A DNA stretch of 64,000 bases from Schmidtea polychroa (lineage: Eukaryota): NCBI GenBank assembly GCA_044892525.1, contig CM097885.1, positions 20,152,001-20,216,000 of the forward strand. Reading direction: 5' to 3'. Below, one piece after another: positions 4,189-60,921 of this stretch. Below the pieces are notes generated by a model. The model was given only the letters and a program-made list of their open reading frames with translations, searched no databases and was not told where the DNA came from. How positions within the stretch are numbered: the stretch's first letter is position 1; each line of letters starts with the position of its first letter. The position numbers were made by a program, and so were the translations under genes.

Positions 4189-4512
4189 TTAAGAACTTAA
4201 TGATGAGATTTCACTAATTGCAGATAAGACTATAGGAATTAGTCCACCCAAGAACCCTCCTTTTTTATATATTATCTTTCTCATTAGACGACGATTTTTT
4301 GTATCAACTAGAGATAAAAGTGATCTTTTATGTCTTTGCAATATTAATCTTTTAGCTTTAGTTATATTCACATTACCACGGACAACATTTATAATAACTT
4401 CAAGTAAATCATCAATAACAAATGATGGAAAAGACTGTAAAAATGATATTCGTTCCGAATTTGGTGCCTTTATTAAAGCATTAAAATATGGTAAACTCCG
4501 TTCAAATTTCAT
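4189..4512 (-). CDS. Conserved small Polinton/adintovirus protein with a C-terminal GGFL amphipathic tail (~107 aa from ATG 4512)
   Basis: N(V)VRGNV...LQRHKRSLLSL...KGGFLGGLIPIVLSAI pattern, lying between ATPase and integrase. Confidence 0.7.
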   Translation of the reverse strand: MKFERSLPYFNALIKAPNSERISFLQSFPSFVIDDLLEVIINVVRGNVNITKAKRLILQRHKRSLLSLVDTKNRRLMRKIIYKKGGFLGGLIPIVLSAISEISSLSS

Positions 4513-4701: not shown

Positions 4702-5325
4702 TTAGTTTTGTTTATAAATCGTAACACCGTTTATATTAAAAATATCAGTTCTAATACGCATATCATCTGGACATTGTTGTGTAAAATCAAAAAATAAATA
4801 TCCATGAGGAATTTTTGTCGCATCTTGGAATGAATCAATCAAAAATTTTCTATTATTTGGATAAGCTTGTCTTGCAAGAAAATCTATTATTGTTTGATCT
4901 CTAGGATTTTTGAAAATAATTAAATATTGGACATTTAAATTACGTGTTCTATGACTTCCACCTTGATGAAAAAGATTTTGTGTAATGAAAATAACTGTAA
5001 CTCCACAATGTCTACTGATTTTTGTAAATAAATTATTAAAATCTTTTTCTTTATTTGCTTCCTGGTACAGATCATCGATAATAATAACATCACCTTGGCG
5101 TAATCTAGATGACCAATTTTTATCAAATCCTTTAATTATTGTCATTTTTAATTTACAGAAACTGTTTTGAGTCAATTCATGTTCTTCATCTGCACCTCGA
5201 TGCCAATATATTTTATTAAATTTAGATTTAAACATGTTTGATTGTAATAAATTACATACAAATAAAGTTTTCCCGCTTCCACTAGGTCCTACAATTTGAT
5301 ATACTGCGTCATTTCTTAATTCCAT
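4702..5325 (-). CDS. FtsK/A32-like DNA packaging ATPase
   Basis: Walker A GPSGSGKT, Walker B IIIDD, SRH and ITQNLF motifs, PHGYLFFD. Confidence 0.93.
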   Translation of the reverse strand: MELRNDAVYQIVGPSGSGKTLFVCNLLQSNMFKSKFNKIYWHRGADEEHELTQNSFCKLKMTIIKGFDKNWSSRLRQGDVIIIDDLYQEANKEKDFNNLFTKISRHCGVTVIFITQNLFHQGGSHRTRNLNVQYLIIFKNPRDQTIIDFLARQAYPNNRKFLIDSFQDATKIPHGYLFFDFTQQCPDDMRIRTDIFNINGVTIYKQN

Positions 5326-6689: not shown

Positions 6690-7880
6690 AAATCTTACTT
6701 TAATTTACTTTAATTTACTTATTTAAAATTTTTTACCATTGATTACTTAATTTAAAAATTATTACTTTAATTTACTTATTTAAAATTTTTTACCATTGAT
6801 TACTTAATTTTAAAATTTGGACCATTATTTACTTAATTTAATTTTTAGAATCATAATTTACTTTAATTTAATTTTTAGAACCTAAATTTACTGTAATTTA
6901 AAAATTTGAGCCATAATTTACTGTAATTTAATTTTTTAGAACCATTATTTACTTTAATTTAAAATTTTTGACCATAATTTACTGTAATTTAATTTTTTAG
7001 AACCATTATTTACTGTAATTGAAAAATTTGGACCATAATTTACTGTAATTCAAAATTTTTGACCATAATTTACTGTAATTTAATTTTTTAGGACCATTAT
7101 TTACTTTAATTTAATTTTTAGAACCATAATTTACTGTAATTCAAAAATTTTGACCATAATTTACTTTAATTGAAAAATTTACCACGTTTTTTAGTGTAGA
7201 CCACCTTTTTCTCAGGACCAAGGAGACCCACCTTAATTTAATTCGAAAAATGCATGCTTTTTTTAGTGATAGTCGGATTTTTGTATTGAAAATATCCTGA
7301 GACCTTAAATTACCATGCTTTTTTATTGAAGACCGCCTATTTGTATTGAAAATATCATGAGACCTTAAATTACCATGCTTTTTTAGTGTAGACCACCTTT
7401 TTGTATTGAAAATATCCTGAGACCTTAAATTACCACTCTTTTTTTAGTGTAGACCACCTTTTTGTAATGAAAAAAATTTTTTGTATTGAAAATCCCGGGA
7501 CCATCGAGACCCCCTCGCTATAGTGACAAAATTCCATGATTTTTTATTGAGACCGCCTTTTTTGTATTGAAAAAAATTTTTTGTATTGAAAATCCCAGGA
7601 CCATCGAGACCCCCTCACTATAGTGTGAATAATCCATGCTTTTTTATTGAAGACCGCCTTTTTCTATTGAAAAATTTTTTTTTGTATTGAAATTCTCAGG
7701 ACCATCGAGACCCACCTCACTATAGTGTGAATAATCCATGCTTTTTTATTGAAGACCAGCTTTTTGTATTGAAAAATTTTTTTTGTATTGAAAATCCCAG
7801 GACCATCATTTTTGTATTGAAAAAAATTTTTTGTATTGAAAATCCCAGGACCATCGAGACCCCTTCACTATAGCGTGAAA
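6690..7880. repeat. Polinton subterminal tandem repeat arrays (~30-bp ACCATAATTTACTGTAATT units, then ~60- and ~110-bp GTATTGAAAA...GAGACC units)
   Basis: Repeated units read directly; adjacent to the element terminus. Confidence 0.85.
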
Positions 7881-10369
7881 AATTGCGTAATAAAAAAGTT
7901 GCCGCAAAAAAAAGTTGCCGCAGACCCCCCCCCCCGGGGGGGTAATTGCGGCAGCGGGCCACTATCTACCTACTTTCTTTTATATTATTTTTCGTCCAAT
8001 CAGGACACGATTTGTTTGTAATTTTATTATTTATTATTATTTATATGTTTTTTATTATAATATACTGGATTTTAACGACCTTACTTATTTTTTATTATTA
8101 TTTTATTATTTTCTTATTTTTTATTGTTTTTCTCTTATTTTCCTATGGATTTATTACCATTTTGTTGTAATATAATTTTTTTTGTTTTAATTATTCTACG
8201 CATTTATTTAGGAATGGTTTTATTTTTATTTTATTTCATTAATTTCTCGTTTATTTTTCTTAAATTTTTGCTATTTTATTTTCCTTTTATTGTTATGCTT
8301 ATTGGGTAATTTCCTTTTGTCCTATTTTTCATCTTAAAAGTTTTATTATTTTATTAGTTATTCCTATCTCTTTTATTGTTATTTGATTTGTTTATTCCTA
8401 TATTTCTATGTAGTTTTCTGTAAAATTTATTTTTATCTATTCTATTCCTTTGTGTGGTCCCTTTTCTCATCCTTGACTCGATTTTCAACACTTTCAAAAC
8501 TTGGCCCAACACATCAAAGTATTTAAAATAAATTAGTTTTTACTGATAAAATCTCATTGAGGTTTTCGTTATATACATAAAATAATACAAAGATTCTCCT
8601 TTGGAACTAAATTCAATTCAAAACATTCATTCAGAACTTCGGCAATTTCTTCATAATATTTGTCAGTATATTATAAATTCGCCGACTTTGGAATCGTTTG
8701 GTTGGTTTGTCACACTAATCTTATAGCCATTATTGTTTATAACTTCCAAATTAGATTCAAATCCCAAAACCTGTGAACTATTTGTTGATTCATCATGATT
8801 TTTTCGAGTTAGTATTTAGATTATCATTTGTATTATTCTGTAAGTCAGTTGTCTTTACAAAATCGGATAACTTTTGATATAACATGTTTTGCATATTGAA
8901 AGATTTATATATTGAATTACTTGATGAATTCACTTTAAAATTCATATTTACATAACTCTAACCAATTTGCCATTTTGGAAAATTACATAATATGCAATAG
9001 CATTAGGAAAATCAATATTCACAACCATATAAGATTTATATAGATTTCGATAAGACCGTTTAACGGCTCACTACTGTTTATATATACAAAATTTTGATGC
9101 CCTTCCACGCATAGTTCTGAGAATTTAGACTGGCAGCGCACACATTATCGAGTATTGCTTGACTTGCTAATTTTCTTTTAAATTGAGTTGAATTTTTTAA
9201 AATTATTTTATATTCAGTACAAGCGCCCATGATTTGTCACTCCTATCGCGCATTCTATTGATTATTTTAAACAATCAATATATTTATTAATTTAATTTTT
9301 GGTTAATATTTTATTAATTTAATTTGGTCGAAGAAAGATAAGTAAGGAGAATCTCAGAAAATCCGGCGATTAGTGATCAGAAATAGTAATCTAGCAATTC
9401 AAAAAAGGTGTAAGACTCGTACCAGAAAATGGGATTGCCCCTTGGGTTTTCTACCTTAACAAGCCAAAATTGTTTTAAGCGAAAGGTGCAAATAGTTACA
9501 AATTGTAATTTGATTGAAATTAAATAAAATTATTCTGTGTTGGGTTTCAATTTATTTGGTTGAATAAGAACACGAGGAGTCAGAGAGAGAACCGACTTTC
9601 AAAATAAAAACAGGGTTGTTCACAGAAATTTCGAGGATTAATTTACCACTTTTGTTGTCATTTGTGATTCAATTCTATTTGCATGAATAAAAATTGGAGT
9701 TTCTATGTAGTCTTAGCCTTTACCTTCTCCAACAGTTACATTGTAAAAATAGGCCATGTTTAAGGTGCTTCTTGCTTCTTTTAAGATTTTTTAATTGTAT
9801 AATGATTTCGATCAATTGGTGTTTTGTGGTCGATAATAGTATATTACTCTCGGGATTTCATGGAAATTACTTAGTTTTACTTTACCTAAATCCCGGGATT
9901 TTCTTTGTGATAATATTTATTCACATGTTGGCAAGAATCCAAGTTAAATTTACTACTTTTGCACAAAATTCTGCTGCAAAAGAAAATAATTGGGATAATT
10001 TCAAGTGACCCACTTTAGTTCCGAAAATAAAGTATAAGATATACAAACATTTTTTTCTTTTTCCCAAAACATTTTTGTCGCAAAGTTATGAACGTACCAA
10101 AATAACATATACCAGTATAACATATAAAAATATCAATTAAAGCCCACCCCCACCTGACCTGATATAGAATCGGCCGATAGTATGTAGAATGCAGCAACAT
10201 GTCCGAATAAATTGTACCATTCCTGTAAACGCGCATAATCATTTTCTCATGATATCAACATGTTGGGCATCACTTCCTACGAGGTTGTCATCATTAAAAA
10301 AATTGGCTTTGCCATTTTGTCCACATTCAGGTCCACTTATAAATTGAGCAAATATTTTCACAAATGAAA

Positions 10370-12668: not shown

Positions 12669-48127
<35,459 letters not shown>

Positions 48128-53965: not shown

Positions 53966-54569
53966 AATATATTACAACTATAATTGTGTTCTTTTCCAAT
54001 TAATCAAATTGACTTATATCGTGCTTAAAATCAACTTGGAACTAGCTATTAACACTATTAATTATAGCTATGCTGAGTTACGATAAGGATAAATTTCTCC
54101 TACACACCTACCCACACTCACACTCCCTTTAATTTTCAACAACTAGTTTCTCCTTGCTATTTCCCATCACAATATCTCATAATATTGTATACTTTTAAGT
54201 ACGCGTAGTAAGCGACGTTGGTCCCGTACGGTAGAGGGCGGCCGTCAGCAAAAATCGAGGATGACAAGTGGAAAAACCTTTCGTATCGGTATGTGTCTTA
54301 TCCTATCGACGCTTTTGCTGTAATTGCATTCCCCTTCATAACTATATCAACCACTAAACGCATGCCGCGAGCGACATTGGTACTGCGATTTAGCGGTTAG
54401 TTGACAGCACAACATGAACCCTATCATATTACCCTAACTCGCCTCTGGGTTCACGGGCTTATCAAGGGTCAAACTAGAGAAATCTAGATATGGTGGTGAG
54501 TCAGAGGCTCAGAGGAAAGGTTTGGAGGTGATCTGATGAGCACATCCAACAATTTTTTTTTAATGATAT

Positions 54570-54790
54570 GGTGGGTTACAGGTACTTTCAAAGTTTCTAC
54601 CTACTCCTGTTGTTTCCAGCGTAACCCAGGATACAATTTATAGCTGACCACTTGATACCCGTTGAGTAATCAACGTTGGTACTGTATCAAGGGTTTGGGT
54701 ACTAGCAAAAAGTGAGCATACTTAGCATACTATAATTGTCTAGCACCCACTGGGGTTCACGGACTGCCGATAGAAGGCCTATGTCCGGTT
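54570..54790 (-). ncRNA. Conserved structured RNA element, copy S1
   Basis: Multi-stem element with compensatory changes relative to 56277-56485. Confidence 0.7.
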
Positions 54791-54888
54791 TCTTTCAGCC
54801 CCCTTACGATAGTTAACGTTATGAAAAAATCGAAATGCCCAGATACGAATACACCAGTAAATATTTATTAGGGAAATAATATCTAAAG

Positions 54889-55350
54889 TTATAGTGTCGT
54901 GGATGATTTCTTCGGAGTAGGCTCTGACACCGCAGAATGACGTGTTAATTGGGCTTGGCTGTCTTGTCTTATTCTCGCCCGCGCCGCTTTACCCGGTCGG
55001 ATCTTCTTCCTCGGGATTTTCGGTGATGCGCACTCCTTCGGGTTGTGGAGCAGCTCACTCATGGGCCGGACTTTGGAGATGACATCTCGGTCGAGACCCT
55101 GTTGGAGTACTTTGATCTCCAGCTCCTTCACTCTCAGGCGGAGGGCCCGCAACTCAACCTGATCTTGGGCACTCTGGTGTTGCAGTTGAGTGATCAGTTT
55201 CATCCGCTTTTTCATCTCTGCTGGCGGGAACCAGGTACTCTCGAAATTCCGACAATGGGCCTTGATTCGTGCTAACCTGGCCCGGTATTCTTCTACTTGT
55301 TATTGCGCCCGCTCTCTATCTGCTCGCATTTCTTCCAGGAGTTTTAGCAC
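54889..55350 (-). pseudogene. Orphan coiled-coil protein B2 (paralog of 56675-57145), one in-frame stop
   Basis: KLLEEMRADRERAQ*Q..ESTWFPPAEMKK..Q.AQDQVELRALRL. Confidence 0.65.
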
Positions 55351-55907
55351 TAAATTAAGACAACATTAGTGATTTTCACCTCAGCATTGAGTGACGCGCA
55401 TTATTAATAATAAATGAATGTAAACTCCTCGTCGCAGCCATCCTCTCTGTACACCTAATCCTAGTTCTACTAATCTTACCAAAACCTTATAGGGCTGGTA
55501 ATAATAGTCAACGTTAAGGAAAATTGTAGTCAATTATAATAGTAGTCAACGTTAAAGAAAATTGTCAAAAATAAAACAAATACAAACAATTGAATTAGTA
55601 TTGACGACTAAAGACATAAACAAACGATTACAAGAATATGAACTACCAAGATAAAAAGAGTAATACTTCTCCTTGAATCAAGGACGTCTATCACTTTACA
55701 TAAATCGCCCTGTACATTGATCACAAAGCCATTTCATGCTATTTAGTGTTCGATTTCGAGTCATAGTCTTTGATCACAACGCGGATGTTAGGCGTGTCGC
55801 ACCACGCTGGCTTTCGGCCCGACAATCCCATTGGCTGAGCTGGCGGTTCTTCGTGGGCGTCCACGTTTTCTTGGCCGGTCCGGTCCTCGCGGAGGACTTC
55901 TTGGATA

Positions 55908-56290
55908 TTACAGGCCACGGCGAAGGGCTGCGGTCCGCTTAGGATGACATTGAGCTCGAGCGTAACCGTCAATGTCCTCGTGCTCACCGGCTAGGGTTGC
56001 TGTTTCGAGTCTGTGCAATCGGTCCACCGCTTCCTTCGCATTGTCGAATGCGTCGCCCAAAGCCAATGATGTATAATTGATATACGGCTCCACCTTCGGG
56101 ATCACTGGGACTACATTCTGGTAGGTCCAATCGTGGATTTTATACCATATCCACCGGGACCTTAGGCGAGCGATTTCTGCGTCCTTCCGTAATCGTACGG
56201 CTTCGTCCGTCTCCTTGTGAGTTGGTTCGAGGCTCAAATCGGAGGATGAAGGACCGGCCTGCACATTCCATGCTCTTGGTGGGTTACTGG
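55908..56290 (-). CDS. Orphan protein A2 (paralog of 57355-57720); no in-frame ATG near the conserved part
   Basis: ARLRSRWIWYKIHDW versus TRLRTRYIWHRIHDW. Confidence 0.55.
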
Positions 56291-56485
56291 TGGTTGAATG
56301 ATTGAGTGCTGTTACCAGCGTAACCCAAAATACAACATTGTTTTTCCGCTTGGTACCCGTTGAGTGATCAACGTTGGTACTGTACCAAGGGTTGAGTACT
56401 CGCAAAAAGTGAGCGCATCAAAGCACTATAGTTGTCGAGTACTCCGTGGGTTCACGGACTACCGATAGAAGGTGTGTGTCCGATT
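56277..56485 (-). ncRNA. Conserved structured RNA element, copy S2
   Basis: Same stems as S1, with compensatory changes. Confidence 0.7.
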
Positions 56486-56674
56486 TCTCAGGTCCCTTTA
56501 TCAAAATTGTTTTCCCAACCTTATGCACAAACTCTCATTTCCCAGGCAATCATAAACTGTACTAGTCCTTATTTTATCACTACAAAACGTGCAGTATTTT
56601 AACAAGGAACATATTATTTGAAGACTACCACAATACATAAAAATACTACAAAACACCTAAAACCGAATATAAGT

Positions 56675-57145
56675 TCAAACAGGCTTATTGGTAGGACTGG
56701 CCAATTCCGTCGCAGCTGCTAGTGACGAATTTGCTTGTCGCTCGTATTCGGCCAGTCTAGCTTTCTTCAATTTTTCCCGAATATTTCGGCCTAACCGCTT
56801 TCTTTTGGGTTTCTCTTTCGCGGCCGGGGGGTATATTGCTGCTAGTTCCACGGTCAACGGCCGGATTTGGCTTATGGCGGCTCCGTGAACTACTTGTTCA
56901 TTTCGCTCGGTTTCTAGCGCGCGGAGCTGGAGCTTCAGTGCCCGGATCTCCATCTGATCCTGCGCGGCTTGAGTCTGCAGTTGAAGGACCTGCGCCACCT
57001 TCTTTTTCATATCCTCGGGACTAAACCAGGTGCTTTCTAGTTCCCGGCACCGTCCCTTGAGCTTGTCTACTCGTATGCGGAGCTCCTCGGACTGTTTTTG
57101 AGCTTCTGCCCTATCTCTTCGCAGATTTTCCAATAGTTTGAACAC
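56675..57145 (-). CDS. Orphan coiled-coil protein B1 with a basic NLS-like patch
   Basis: GC-rich 156-codon ORF with protein-level conservation to B2; begins right after a TAG acceptor. Confidence 0.7.
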   Translation of the reverse strand: MFKLLENLRRDRAEAQKQSEELRIRVDKLKGRCRELESTWFSPEDMKKKVAQVLQLQTQAAQDQMEIRALKLQLRALETERNEQVVHGAAISQIRPLTVELAAIYPPAAKEKPKRKRLGRNIREKLKKARLAEYERQANSSLAAATELASPTNKPV

Positions 57146-57354
57146 TAGATAAATTCAACGATTATATTCTTGCAGCGTACTATTCATTCAATTATAAAAT
57201 AAAATCAATATTATAAATAGACATGGTTTCGGGTGTTAAGCACGCAATACACAAGATGATTTATTAAAAGGACTGAAATAATTATCACTAAAATCAAAGT
57301 TTAATAAAGTCACAACTGGATGATAATTTGCAAAAACAAAATTTTGACGATGAG

Positions 57355-57720
57355 TCAGTTCAGTCGCTTGCGAGGCCTTCCCCTCTTCCGCGGGGTTGCC
57401 TCGGCCTCTTCTAGGTCCTCCACGGTTTTTCCCTCTTTTTCTGCTTGGATTTGCAGCTCGATCTTCTTGAGTCGCATCTGAGCTGCCTCTACCTCGATGG
57501 CCGCTCGGTCGCGGGCCTCTTGCAAAAAATCGTTTGTGGGCTCTGTTTTTACCCACGCCGGAGCGTCCGGCTCCGGCCCACTCCTGATTACTGGGCCAAA
57601 GTTGTCGAGGTCCAAACCCCGATTCCAATCATGGATACGGTGCCATATGTACCGTGTACGGAGTCTGGTAAGCAGCTGTCGGTCGGCTTCTTCGTGGCTA
57701 TCGCTGTCAGAGTAGGACAT
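57355..57720 (-). CDS. Orphan protein A1 with a C-terminal AT-hook
   Basis: ATG-started 121 aa, PRKRGRPRKR; acceptor TTTTGTAG 2 nt before the ATG. Confidence 0.7.
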   Translation of the reverse strand: MSYSDSDSHEEADRQLLTRLRTRYIWHRIHDWNRGLDLDNFGPVIRSGPEPDAPAWVKTEPTNDFLQEARDRAAIEVEAAQMRLKKIELQIQAEKEGKTVEDLEEAEATPRKRGRPRKRLN

Positions 57721-58239
57721 TTCTACAAAATAATAATCAAGCCCCTCTATACTGATTGAGATACGACGTCAACCACAAGATTTTGTTGACCCTTTTTCCC
57801 TTTAAAAAAAAAATATTTTATTTTAAGACTAACATCTATAAGCTTAGGAGTAGTGGAATAAGATTTCCTACTTTATCAAAACAAACACAAAAAAAAAAAG
57901 AATTTCGTCAAAATTCGTTTGTTTAAATTAATCATTTCCATTCAAAATTTTGTTTACCACCGAGTGGTAATCTTAATTACTATTTATAAATTTTAATTTA
58001 TATGTTAATAAAATGTGAATTTTTTTTTTAGATCGTCATTTTTAGGCCACTAAATTCGGGCACGCTGGGGCGACAGGTACTAGCAACGAACTAAGCTCTT
58101 CGTCTGCTTACCTTTCCTTCGGTTGTGCTCGTTATGAGTGGTTTGCTCTGCATACAAGTAATTTATTTAATTTGCTAATTTCTAAATTTCCAGGTGATCG
58201 ATATCGGATTGGGATATCGATTTTTTGTAGTTAACTGTA

Positions 58240-58580
58240 ATAATACCAATAATAATAACAATGAAATAACGATACTAATAATAATAATAATAATGATAAT
58301 AATAATATTAATAATAGCAATGATAGTAATAATAATAAGAATAATAATAAATTTTAATAATGGTAATAATAATAATACTAATAATAATAATAACAAGAAT
58401 AATAATAAATTTTTATAATGGTACTGATAATGATGATAAATATAATAATGCTAATTATGATATTCATAATAATGATAACAATAATATAATAATAATAAGA
58501 ATAAGAATAATAATACTAATAGTAATGATAATGTTGATACTGCTAATAGTAATAACAAGGGAAATGATCAGGATTATGAT
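58240..58580. repeat. Degenerate (AAT)n low-complexity tract
   Basis: Read directly. Confidence 0.85.
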
Positions 58581-59880
58581 AACTATAATTTTACAATCCC
58601 ATGTTTTAGAATTATAAATTTATGTTTTATAATTTATACTTTGATAATTTTCGATTTATAATTTAAAATTTTTCAATTTAGGGATTTACAATCTTGTAAT
58701 TTATAATTATAATTTCATATTTTGAAATTTATACATTCATATTTTATAAGTTATAATTGCTTAACTTATAATTTCTAAGTTTATAATCTGAAATTTATAC
58801 TTTTGTAATTCGTATTTTCGTACTTTATAATTTGAAATTTTTAGTCGACGGAATATACTTCTTACAACTTCCTTTCTATGATCAACATTGTTTTCCGCAG
58901 TACTTACAGATTTCCTGGTCCTATTTGTGGATTAAACTTCAGGGTTCTAGCGCGTCTATCGCCTATTACTATCTCTGATCAGACTTTCTCCATTAACACT
59001 TTACATTTTCAGGATCGACGTGATTTGTACCTAGCTATCGTAATTATTTATAACTTATAGTTTTATGGTTAACAACAAGAATATTACAACTAAGAGCCTA
59101 CACATTTACAAACCTTTTAAAGTGGGAACTAGATTTAAAATGTCTATCTTTACTCGGAATCAGCATATCTAGGCCAAGTTATACCTGTACGTATGCCGAA
59201 TATCTCTCTTATTTCTATTACTTTATCAAAGATCCTTACTACAAAATCTAGTTCGGCATATGTCTAAGCATAATTGAAATTACCATTATGAATCAACTAG
59301 CTACATTAATGTGAGTGTAGAATTGTGTAATTTTAGGTACGAGCTCTACTCAAATTAGAACCTTAGTGTAGAGTTATTGTTCAGGATTTTAAGTGTTGAG
59401 TTTAATTGTATATTACGCAATGAGTCGGGAAGAATATTGCTTCCATGGCCCCACTGTGACCACGTCCACAAACCTTAGTGTTGTGTGCTAAGTCAACCAT
59501 TTACGGCTGACCTTAAATAAATACGAAGAGTCAGGCGGAGGGTTTCCTCGACCTAACTCCATGGCAGGACCATGAAGTAGTTCGACCTCCGGCTGACCCG
59601 AACAAAAAGAAATCATATAATAAATATCACTATAATAATGATAATGCGTGTCTGCATGTCCTGTTAATAACGATTTTAATAAATTGGATGCAGGACTGAA
59701 CAACGACGCAGGAATACCAGTACGCCGTTGATCACTCATACATCGCAAAAAAAAAATTTAAGCAAAAATAAATTTAAAATACCATCTATATAATTAAACA
59801 ATTAATATACAAATAAAGATCAATGCTTACTATCGATTTTGGAAATTTCGTCACAAAAATTTGGCATAAAAGTGATTGAT

Positions 59881-60523
59881 TGTGACTGAAACGTGTCAGT
59901 ATATATACCTATTTAGTACACGTGTATGTATTGATGCATTAAAACAAACTCGAATTCTTTTTATTCCAGAATTTTCTATTTTACGATTTTGCTATTTTTA
60001 ATGGCAATTTTTTGTGCCATAATTTTTGTTTTTATTTTTATATTTTTATTTTTTAATTATTTTTCATTAATTTTACGTCCATGATGGATTTGGAACGGTT
60101 CCAGAACATTCTATTTTACTTTTAATTTAATTTTTATTTTAACTGATGTTTTTATGAATTCTTTTTGAGATTTTTTTATTTTTAATACTAATTCATTTAT
60201 TTTCCTTAACTTTTGTTGTTCTAGATGACTTTTGTGATGGTCATCGCCATTTTATAGAATGTTCTGGGTTTTTCTGGAATTTTTTACTATTTTTATCGTC
60301 TTTTCAGTTATTCGAGTTTGCTTTTGGTAATTCTATGTTTGTTTGATTATTTTTGAGTTAGGTTTTTGCATCACTTCTTGCTTCTGTATAATTTTATTTA
60401 ATTTCTTTGTTTATGTTTTTGTTGCTTTCTCCTTTAGTTAATATTGTTTATTTGGTGTGTATTTTAATATTTAACTATACTTTTTGCTTTTTACATGTTG
60501 TGTACCTGCACGTTTCAGTCACA
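59881..60523. mobile_element. 643-bp T-rich element with 15-bp terminal inverted repeats (TG...CA); solo LTR or MITE
   Basis: TGTGACTGAAACGTG / CACGTTTCAGTCACA; internal similarity to ~49160-49520; no clear TSD. Confidence 0.55.
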
Positions 60524-60921
60524 ATTAGTAGTTTGGGTCTAGAAATCAGTTCTAGCCCAACATAAAACACTCGGGGGCCCATAAAATTGCGACCCGCAAT
60601 TTAAATCCAAAGATGAATAAGATTAATTTTCAGAATACTTGCACTATATTACAAGTGCCTACATGCAAATTGGGTCCACGAGCTACAGGGTCGTGACCTC
60701 AATACCCACATACATAAAAATGCTACTATTACACTACATTTTACAGATGGGTTGAAAGATGAAGGAAAAGAACGACCGATGTCGGCCCACATAAAAATAA
60801 CATTATCATGCTCAAGAATCAGTGTCATTAATCGTAGTCTCAGTCTTTGAAATCCATTGTTCGATCAGGATGATTTATCGTTTATAATGTCGTGAAATGT
60901 TTTTACTGTCATGATGTCACA

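Follow-up and report, generated by a model that had tools for sequence, protein, structure and literature searches.

Leader structures for priming and packaging have been mapped in a few retroviruses and in yeast Ty elements, mostly by probing of single sequences. In HIV-1, as set out in the passages of PMC11251516 on the primer-binding site (PBS) domain, elements just 5′ of the PBS make extra contacts with the primer tRNA: the A-rich loop touches the anticodon loop, and the PAS touches the T-arm. The leaders of the LTR retrotransposons Ty1 and Ty3 likewise contact the primer tRNA beyond the PBS, as PMC5371799 describes for the bipartite PBS of Ty1/Ty3, and abstracts on the 5′ cis-domain of Ty1 add structures for packaging and priming. 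In MMTV, a purine loop that is single stranded within a leader stem near the PBS and the PBS itself are Gag-binding packaging signals, according to the relevant part of PMC8096270. The closest described host element is the planarian Burro (GYPSM1), a giant Gypsy element for which the protein descriptions in PMC6431247 give kb-long LTRs, gag with CCHC, MATH, reverse transcriptase (RT), RNase H, integrase, ankyrin, and BIR domains, an env-like fusion domain between gag and pol, an internal region of up to 25 kb, and a total length of about 30 kb. According to a citing paper (PMC13465017), the Burro lineage affects planarian stem cells.

The window analyzed here is a 64,000-nt stretch of the Schmidtea polychroa genome (contig CM097885.1, positions 20,152,001 to 20,216,000, assembly GCA_044892525.1), and the LTR and fold features described below lie on its minus strand unless noted otherwise. 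It holds two copies, A and B, of an RNA fold that the initial annotation had taken for a repeat placed after each copy of an orphan two-gene module. Instead, each copy forms the 3′ end of a giant LTR. Two such LTRs, of Burro-type Gypsy retrotransposons, are nested here, and the ORF pair of the “module” lies within them. The family-A 3′ LTR (4,286 bp, 56277..60562), bordered by the target duplication AGAG, belongs to a young element whose two LTRs are identical at 4286/4286 positions (100%); the window ends before the 5′ LTR, which is found some 17.5 kb farther to the right. Element A sits in ORF1 of a family-B solo LTR, as seen when the sequence is read past the window. The 3′ part of that LTR occupies 54569..56276, with the target duplication TATC and its remainder beyond the window. 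The window has two copies of the fold because this nested insertion joined the ends of two related LTRs. One half of a small, dispersed, unrelated repeat, split by the insertion of LTR B and given no strand, lies at 54462..54568.

A DNA search of the 781-Mb genome of the same species returned 2550 candidates, and the 40 that were scored are 97 to 100% identical. Sequence sharing stops at GTAACCCACCA in 29 of 30 printed loci, one of which is the window, and the flanks beyond are mostly unrelated. Longer stretches gave units of 4.9 to 6.5 kb that start with TGTTGGG and end with CCCACCA, and the corresponding ends across families are TGTTGG...CCACCA or CCAACA. We identify the units as LTRs because of these termini, because 4-bp target duplications flank them (8 of 9 solo LTRs and 5 of 5 full elements), and because, among 13 units, a PBS follows two and shared internal sequence precedes two.

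The internal regions are those of Burro-type elements, among which CCHC zinc knuckles are present. The family-B element has ORFs with MATH, env-like fusion, RNase H, integrase, ankyrin, TRAF, and BIR domains, and the G5 element is complete in the order gag-env-PR-RT-RH-IN-ankyrin, with a TRAF ORF also present. Element A has kept gag and MATH, and its frames of ≥110 aa include no pol ORF, RT, or integrase. Elements G4, G5, and G5b are about 30 kb long; element A, with 21.8 kb, and G3, with 15.6 kb, are shorter derivatives, and the G3 LTR measures 1645 bp and is free of LTR ORFs at the same frame length. By domain content and by the published description in PMC6431247, the host elements match planarian Burro/GYPSM1, sharing its giant size, kb-long LTRs, and gag/env-like/pol/ankyrin/BIR/MATH set. 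The Burro descriptions in that paper deal with proteins only, unlike the elements here, which add an RNA fold and ORFs in the LTR. The initial annotation had allowed that a match to a described transposable element would count against its proposal; such a match exists for the host element (Burro) and not for the RNA fold. The host element is a described one and leader structures beside a PBS are a familiar type; the fold itself is without a match in Rfam.

Two features of the internal region deserve mention. In families A and G5 (L052:3516-3995; L258:6271-6774), an ORF with a RING finger sits between PBS and gag; it may be the RING part of the IAP that has been reported for Burro. The 70 nt before the 3′ LTR contain no polypurine tract in any of five elements; in element A, a conserved hairpin and GGGCCCCC occupy the expected site directly before the 3′ LTR (60573..60601). 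The same hairpin is found at this place in G3, G4, G5, and G5b, and a GGGYCCCC-like motif could pair with the PBS, which suggests an unusual mode of plus-strand priming or a circularization of the RNA. The missing polypurine tract is an oddity, and gag-pol, LTRs, and PBS still place the elements in Gypsy. In another locus (L056 and L059; C1:139.33-139.35 Mb), an inverted and rearranged second copy is seen inside a family-B element, with LTR-like ends that lack the fold.

Fold copy A (56277..56481) scores 117 bits with our covariance model and fold copy B (54569..54786) scores 118 bits; their shuffle z-scores, each from 200 shuffles, are −3.44 and −2.86. The copies are about 79% identical, and all helices quoted for them in the initial annotation are found at the minus-strand places it gave. 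In the sense direction, the fold begins with a hairpin bearing a near-invariant UUCUA loop (A, 56456..56481; B, 54761-54786), followed by UGAACCC (A, 56448..56454; B, 54753-54759), which is complementary to the T-arm of the tRNA-Pro of the same genome and is kept in four families (G1 to G4) and missing from the fifth (G5). Next comes a long stem with an internal loop and a conserved GCUCAC block (A, 56394..56444; B, 54697-54748), and then a bulged stem (A, 56349..56389; B, 54651-54691) composed of an 8-bp helix, an 8-nt bulge facing one G, and a capping hairpin. The bulge, AGUACCAA (A, 56374-56381; B, 54676-54683), contains a near-invariant CCAA. The fold closes with a terminal helix around a GNRA hairpin (A, 56277..56335; B, 54569-54636), which in 5′ LTR copies extends into the spacer before the PBS. 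A viral tRNA-like acceptor end (a 3′ CCA mimic) was considered and rejected: it is not kept across families, G3 to G5 ending in CCAACA, and the LTR end lies within the helix that runs into the spacer.

Near-invariant unpaired bases make up the UUCUA loop, the CAC that follows GCU, and much of the bulge, in which A..CCAA is fixed and the middle is variable. CCAA is kept in 58 to 59 of 60 copies per column while the stems are freely rewritten, and genome pattern matches with CC in the bulge number 2357, against 3 with both C altered. In thermodynamic folding, the two C of CCAA are only 19 to 67% unpaired, and GAACCC is paired in some families. Four single copies, three of them clearly of different families (L319, L320, L321, and L322; ~1500-1545) have GUAA in place of CCAA, and a PBS follows none of the four; this double change may mark a slippage hot spot of reverse transcriptase or an alternative state.

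A third unit, which the initial annotation had described as highly diverged, is the decayed remnant of an LTR from an older family that has a homologous fold (54348..54477), separated from LTR B by the unrelated small repeat. It scores 21.5 bits with filters off and gives no match under default filters, and with z = −1.34 it folds no better than its 200 shuffles. The older group to which it belongs has 25 genome pattern matches against 0 for the control; a similar LTR terminus closes many of its members, and weak ORF2 similarity is seen at 4 of 27 older-group loci. The initial annotation had this unit keep a pairing of GUGAACCC with GGGUUCAU; the unit is homologous, but the pairing is not a conserved one, since its GGGUUCAU aligns with what is the GCUCAC block in the other copies. 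In the proposed switch, UGGGUUAC would pair either upstream or downstream. The downstream pairing is part of the terminal helix present in four families, the upstream alternative is not conserved, and the switch, like one with GUGAACCC, is seen in the group of the window alone.

Thousands of LTRs carry the fold, in at least five families that are otherwise dissimilar; element A gives no alignment longer than 150 bp with the elements of other families. Genome counts are of exact sequence patterns: the window-group pattern has 2087 matches against 3 for its control, the other-family pattern has 2357 against 0, and one looser pattern has 3876, with 1053 in its control. A covariance model built from 18 copies gave 65 matches in 75 sources, including just two in the window. 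Viral contigs contained 41 pattern matches, none of which was matched by the model.

The stems covary. Within the window group, 9 of 51 predicted pairs are changed on both sides in 26 copies, in agreement with the earlier claim that the differences between copies preserve pairing, and the signal is stronger across families. The bulged stem has 8 of 8 pairs in all 22 nonrelic copies; its arms pair at 0.96 within a family and at 0.55 when exchanged across families, and 7 of the 8 pairs change on both sides. Among 60 distinct copies, in an alignment fitted to the model, 94.9% of cells pair, compared to 71.7% for shuffled and 28 to 47% for slid partners, and the inner long stem has 95.6% of its cells paired. 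For 30 phylogenetically independent pairs, taken from a tree of columns 1 to 110 that excluded the tested helices, and with relics included in the counts, we found 24 both-side changes where 10.3 were expected, a number reached by 0 of 10,000 permutations. Pairing was kept in 18 of the 24 and lost in 6; one-sided changes kept it in 19 cases and broke it in 23. The minus-strand sense given in the initial annotation is borne out by G-U pairs and by sense z-scores better than antisense in 20 of 20 copies. That it could assign the RNA to no known family agrees with the Rfam searches, in which no family (IRES, ribozyme, T-box, and retroviral psi included) matched the fold, either at E≤5 within the window or at E≤1 at six loci of four other families. 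Literature searches, mostly at the level of abstracts, turned up no description of the fold; the first Burro paper and the Burro1 paper of 2026, with their supplements, may bear on this. The sequence comparisons support the fold as a selected, sense-strand (minus), cis-acting RNA structure. With thousands of copies in at least five divergent families, an animal Gypsy lineage with an env-like protein thereby gains a leader fold backed by covariation, and the fold can serve as a marker for Burro-type LTRs.

The PBS is a perfect, contiguous match of 18 to 20 nt to the tRNA-Pro(UGG) of the same genome in 6 of 6 elements. Its pattern occurs 1058 times in the genome, and the first 30 occurrences divide into 13 G1, 7 G3, 7 G4, and 3 G5. 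All 30 of these fetched sites follow the LTR end of a fold-bearing family, 13 coming after a window-type LTR end and 17 having the fold in the printed sequence. No fold family primed by a tRNA other than tRNA-Pro was found among 19 candidate sites, which consisted of 8 single-base variants of the Pro PBS, 1 LTR end without a PBS, and 10 unrelated matches. The fold lies upstream, with 105 to 165 nt between bulge and PBS.

A spacer of 7 to 8 nt separates the CA end of the LTR from the PBS (L052:4782-4789, with equivalents elsewhere). The usual spacer is about 2 nt, and the longer one implies unusual processing of the end. The spacer pairs with a strand inside the fold at 6 of 6 positions in 21 of 23 distinct copies and at 5 of 6 in the other two, the partner strand being the best of 45 windows, a choice that inflates chance matches. 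Between G1 and G3 to G5 the pairing is compensatory, with 5.8 to 6.0 pairs within a type and 2.0 to 3.0 across types. Since the spacer is present only at the 5′ LTR, the fold is complete only beside the PBS. An AATAAA, a candidate poly(A) signal, lies at 54864..54869, about 80 nt upstream of fold copy B. In B, G5, and G5b (3 of 6 LTRs) such a motif precedes the fold by 80 to 170 nt, and in A, G3, and G4 there is none nearby; G5b has an additional AATAAA downstream of the fold. The position of the motif hints that the fold lies in U5. Among contigs of four read runs, those of two runs that may be RNA reach over fold and leader, with scant coverage of the ORFs and no visible splice joint, an observation on which no claim here rests. 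The fold is kept in element A, which is without RT and integrase, and in G3, whose LTR has no ORF, and retention of this kind is the pattern of a cis element for replication.

Our preferred explanation, put forward tentatively because we hold it at somewhat less than an even chance, is that the fold serves in the 5′ leader as a scaffold: it would hold out the PBS and dock the tRNA-Pro of the host, from which reverse transcription starts. The stretch at the LTR end would be transcribed as U5 into the leader of the genomic RNA, where the terminal helix would close with the spacer and set the PBS at its foot. The CCAA bulge would then contact bases U33 to G36 of the anticodon loop of tRNA-Pro, GAACCC would contact its T-arm, and the docked tRNA would prime reverse transcription at the PBS. 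The tRNA-Pro of this genome has the anticodon UGG, and only its anticodon loop is perfectly complementary to CCAA. The T-arm offers a match to GAACCC, as happens in 5% of shuffles, and the acceptor strand offers one to GCUCA; the three matches occur jointly in 0.19% of 20,000 shuffled tRNAs. The proposed contacts are short and were chosen post hoc: a complement of CCAA occurs somewhere in 45% of shuffled tRNAs, the UUCUA loop is without a perfect complement in tRNA-Pro, and the GGUUC of the T-arm is common to most tRNAs. The lack of GAACCC in G5, the copies with GUAA, and the partial pairing of the two C of CCAA in predicted folds also speak against docking. A pairing of the bulge with the 5′ strand of the tRNA was also considered and rejected, being absent with the tRNA-Pro of this genome. 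CCAA could instead bind a protein or pair with UUGG at the PBS border, which is the only CCAA-pairing site common to all eight elements checked.

A more specific form of tRNA reading, which we consider rather unlikely, is that of a leader resembling a T-box, in which CCAA, as a Pro codon plus A, would read the anticodon of tRNA-Pro(UGG), with the 3′ end of the tRNA taken up by the PBS and its T-arm by another motif; in this way the leader would itself select and activate its primer. T-box riboswitches control bacterial genes, and the codon and following A in the internal loop of their specifier read the anticodon of a tRNA. The analogy is one of how the RNA might work, as the Burro fold has no Rfam match; should the codon-like bulge indeed read the anticodon, the recognition of tRNA by T-boxes would have a counterpart in eukaryotes. 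The scaffold that we prefer also differs from the leaders mapped previously. Compared to HIV-1, there is no sequence or Rfam similarity, and the candidate anticodon contact is CCAA in an 8×1 internal loop more than 100 nt upstream. The predicted contacts further differ from the PAS in that the T-arm match is missing from one family. Compared to Ty1 and Ty3, the PBS is contiguous (18 to 20 nt), the primer is another one, and the fold lies almost wholly inside the LTR end, and compared to MMTV, the invariant bases are CCAA rather than a purine run. The fold is also a compact RNA with which to study how an element of 22 to 30 kb chooses its primer or its genome.

The LTR ORFs bear on one of the alternatives. 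In family A, ORF1 (57355..57720) encodes 121 aa with a C-terminal KRGRPRK motif, which we take to be an AT-hook, and ORF2 (56675..57154) is an open frame without an ATG that has a TWFxP motif and an Arg/Lys-rich stretch. In family B, ORF1 (55908..56272) is broken by element A and ends prematurely, and ORF2 is at 54889..55299. ORF2 homologs with an Arg/Lys-rich stretch are found in the G4 and G5 LTRs, where they have an acidic tail, and identity between families falls to 20 to 35%. Both ORFs are under purifying selection, with dN/dS of 0.07 to 0.48 in 25 pairwise comparisons of family-B copies. Searches with the LTR ORFs gave no Pfam family, no further homologs, and no Atlas match at ≥0.9. An AG acceptor-like site precedes family-A ORF2 and a donor-like AAG/GTAAG is present at 58107-58114; the LTR ORFs may be spliced regulators.

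Two other functions are real rivals of the priming scaffold and are compatible with it. The fold could be a Gag-binding signal for packaging or dimerization, its bulge and loops contacting nucleocapsid and the PBS acting as neighbor or co-signal. We regard this as possible, if on balance improbable. The identical leader position and the retention in RT-less elements fit it too, the elements carry CCHC zinc knuckles, the MMTV purine loop and PBS are a precedent, and literature abstracts place packaging and dimerization elements at the 5′ end of Ty1. Against it, the invariant part of the bulge is CCAA, the lone conserved G sits on the opposite strand, and the alignments show no obvious palindromic loop that is conserved. 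In addition, packaging signals usually reach 3′ of the PBS. The fold could also be an element like TAR or RRE that responds to the LTR-encoded ORF2 protein and boosts transcription or export of an RNA of 22 to 30 kb, which we judge unlikely. Asymmetric internal loops are typical sites for arginine-rich motifs; ORF2 is common to the G1, G4, and G5 LTRs and has an Arg/Lys-rich stretch, with the acidic tail in G4 and G5, and selection maintains both ORFs. However, the fold is present in G3, whose LTR has no ORF, although the protein might be supplied in trans; ORF2 has diverged greatly while the bulge stayed fixed, no ORF2 homolog of known function was found, and the pairing into the PBS spacer is left unexplained.

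The remaining explanations have much lower standing. The initial annotation had listed several cis-acting roles, of which a functional cis RNA in general is upheld and packaging is still live, while IRES, ribozyme, and 3′-processing roles find little support. A role as IRES or as enhancer of translation of the first internal ORF, which we think very unlikely, would agree with a fold in the presumed leader upstream of the RING-finger ORF, but in G1A, G4, and G5 the first internal frame starts at variable distances, some 300 to 800 nt, downstream of the PBS, and a match to an Rfam IRES is absent. Several helices with invariant single-stranded bases would suit a self-cleaving ribozyme or an element for 3′-end processing or stability, a reading that we rate slightly lower still. 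There is no Rfam ribozyme match, the AATAAA upstream in B, G5, and G5b would leave the fold beyond the 3′ end, and cleavage there would presumably sever the template of first-strand synthesis. That the RNA has no function, and that LTR signals acting at the level of DNA or chance in a high-copy repeat account for the conservation, is scarcely credible. The extreme LTR end is an integrase attachment site, but entire helices are rewritten with pairing retained, and this covariation largely refutes the idea; the G-U pairs and the consistent advantage of the sense strand also oppose it, as does the remaining LTR, which gave no between-family alignment longer than 150 bp.

The tRNA genes of this genome are arranged in huge tandem arrays (L145-L150; L267-L296), with 1565 pattern matches for tRNA-Pro at a period of about 475 bp, and Lys(TTT) and Arg(TCG) arrays are likewise present. 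Elsewhere in the window, a separate, smaller Gypsy gag-pol lies on the plus strand at 32938-37061; no fold-model match is found nearby, and with default filters the covariance model gave none at the other Gypsy ORFs of the window. At 4702-5325, 27880-29135, and 47456-48127 are an ATPase/helicase-like ORF, broken pieces of a DDE_Tnp_1_7 transposase, and a Na/Ca exchanger-like ORF, and the stretch at 6807-7889 consists of tandem repeats of about 30, 60, and 100 bp.
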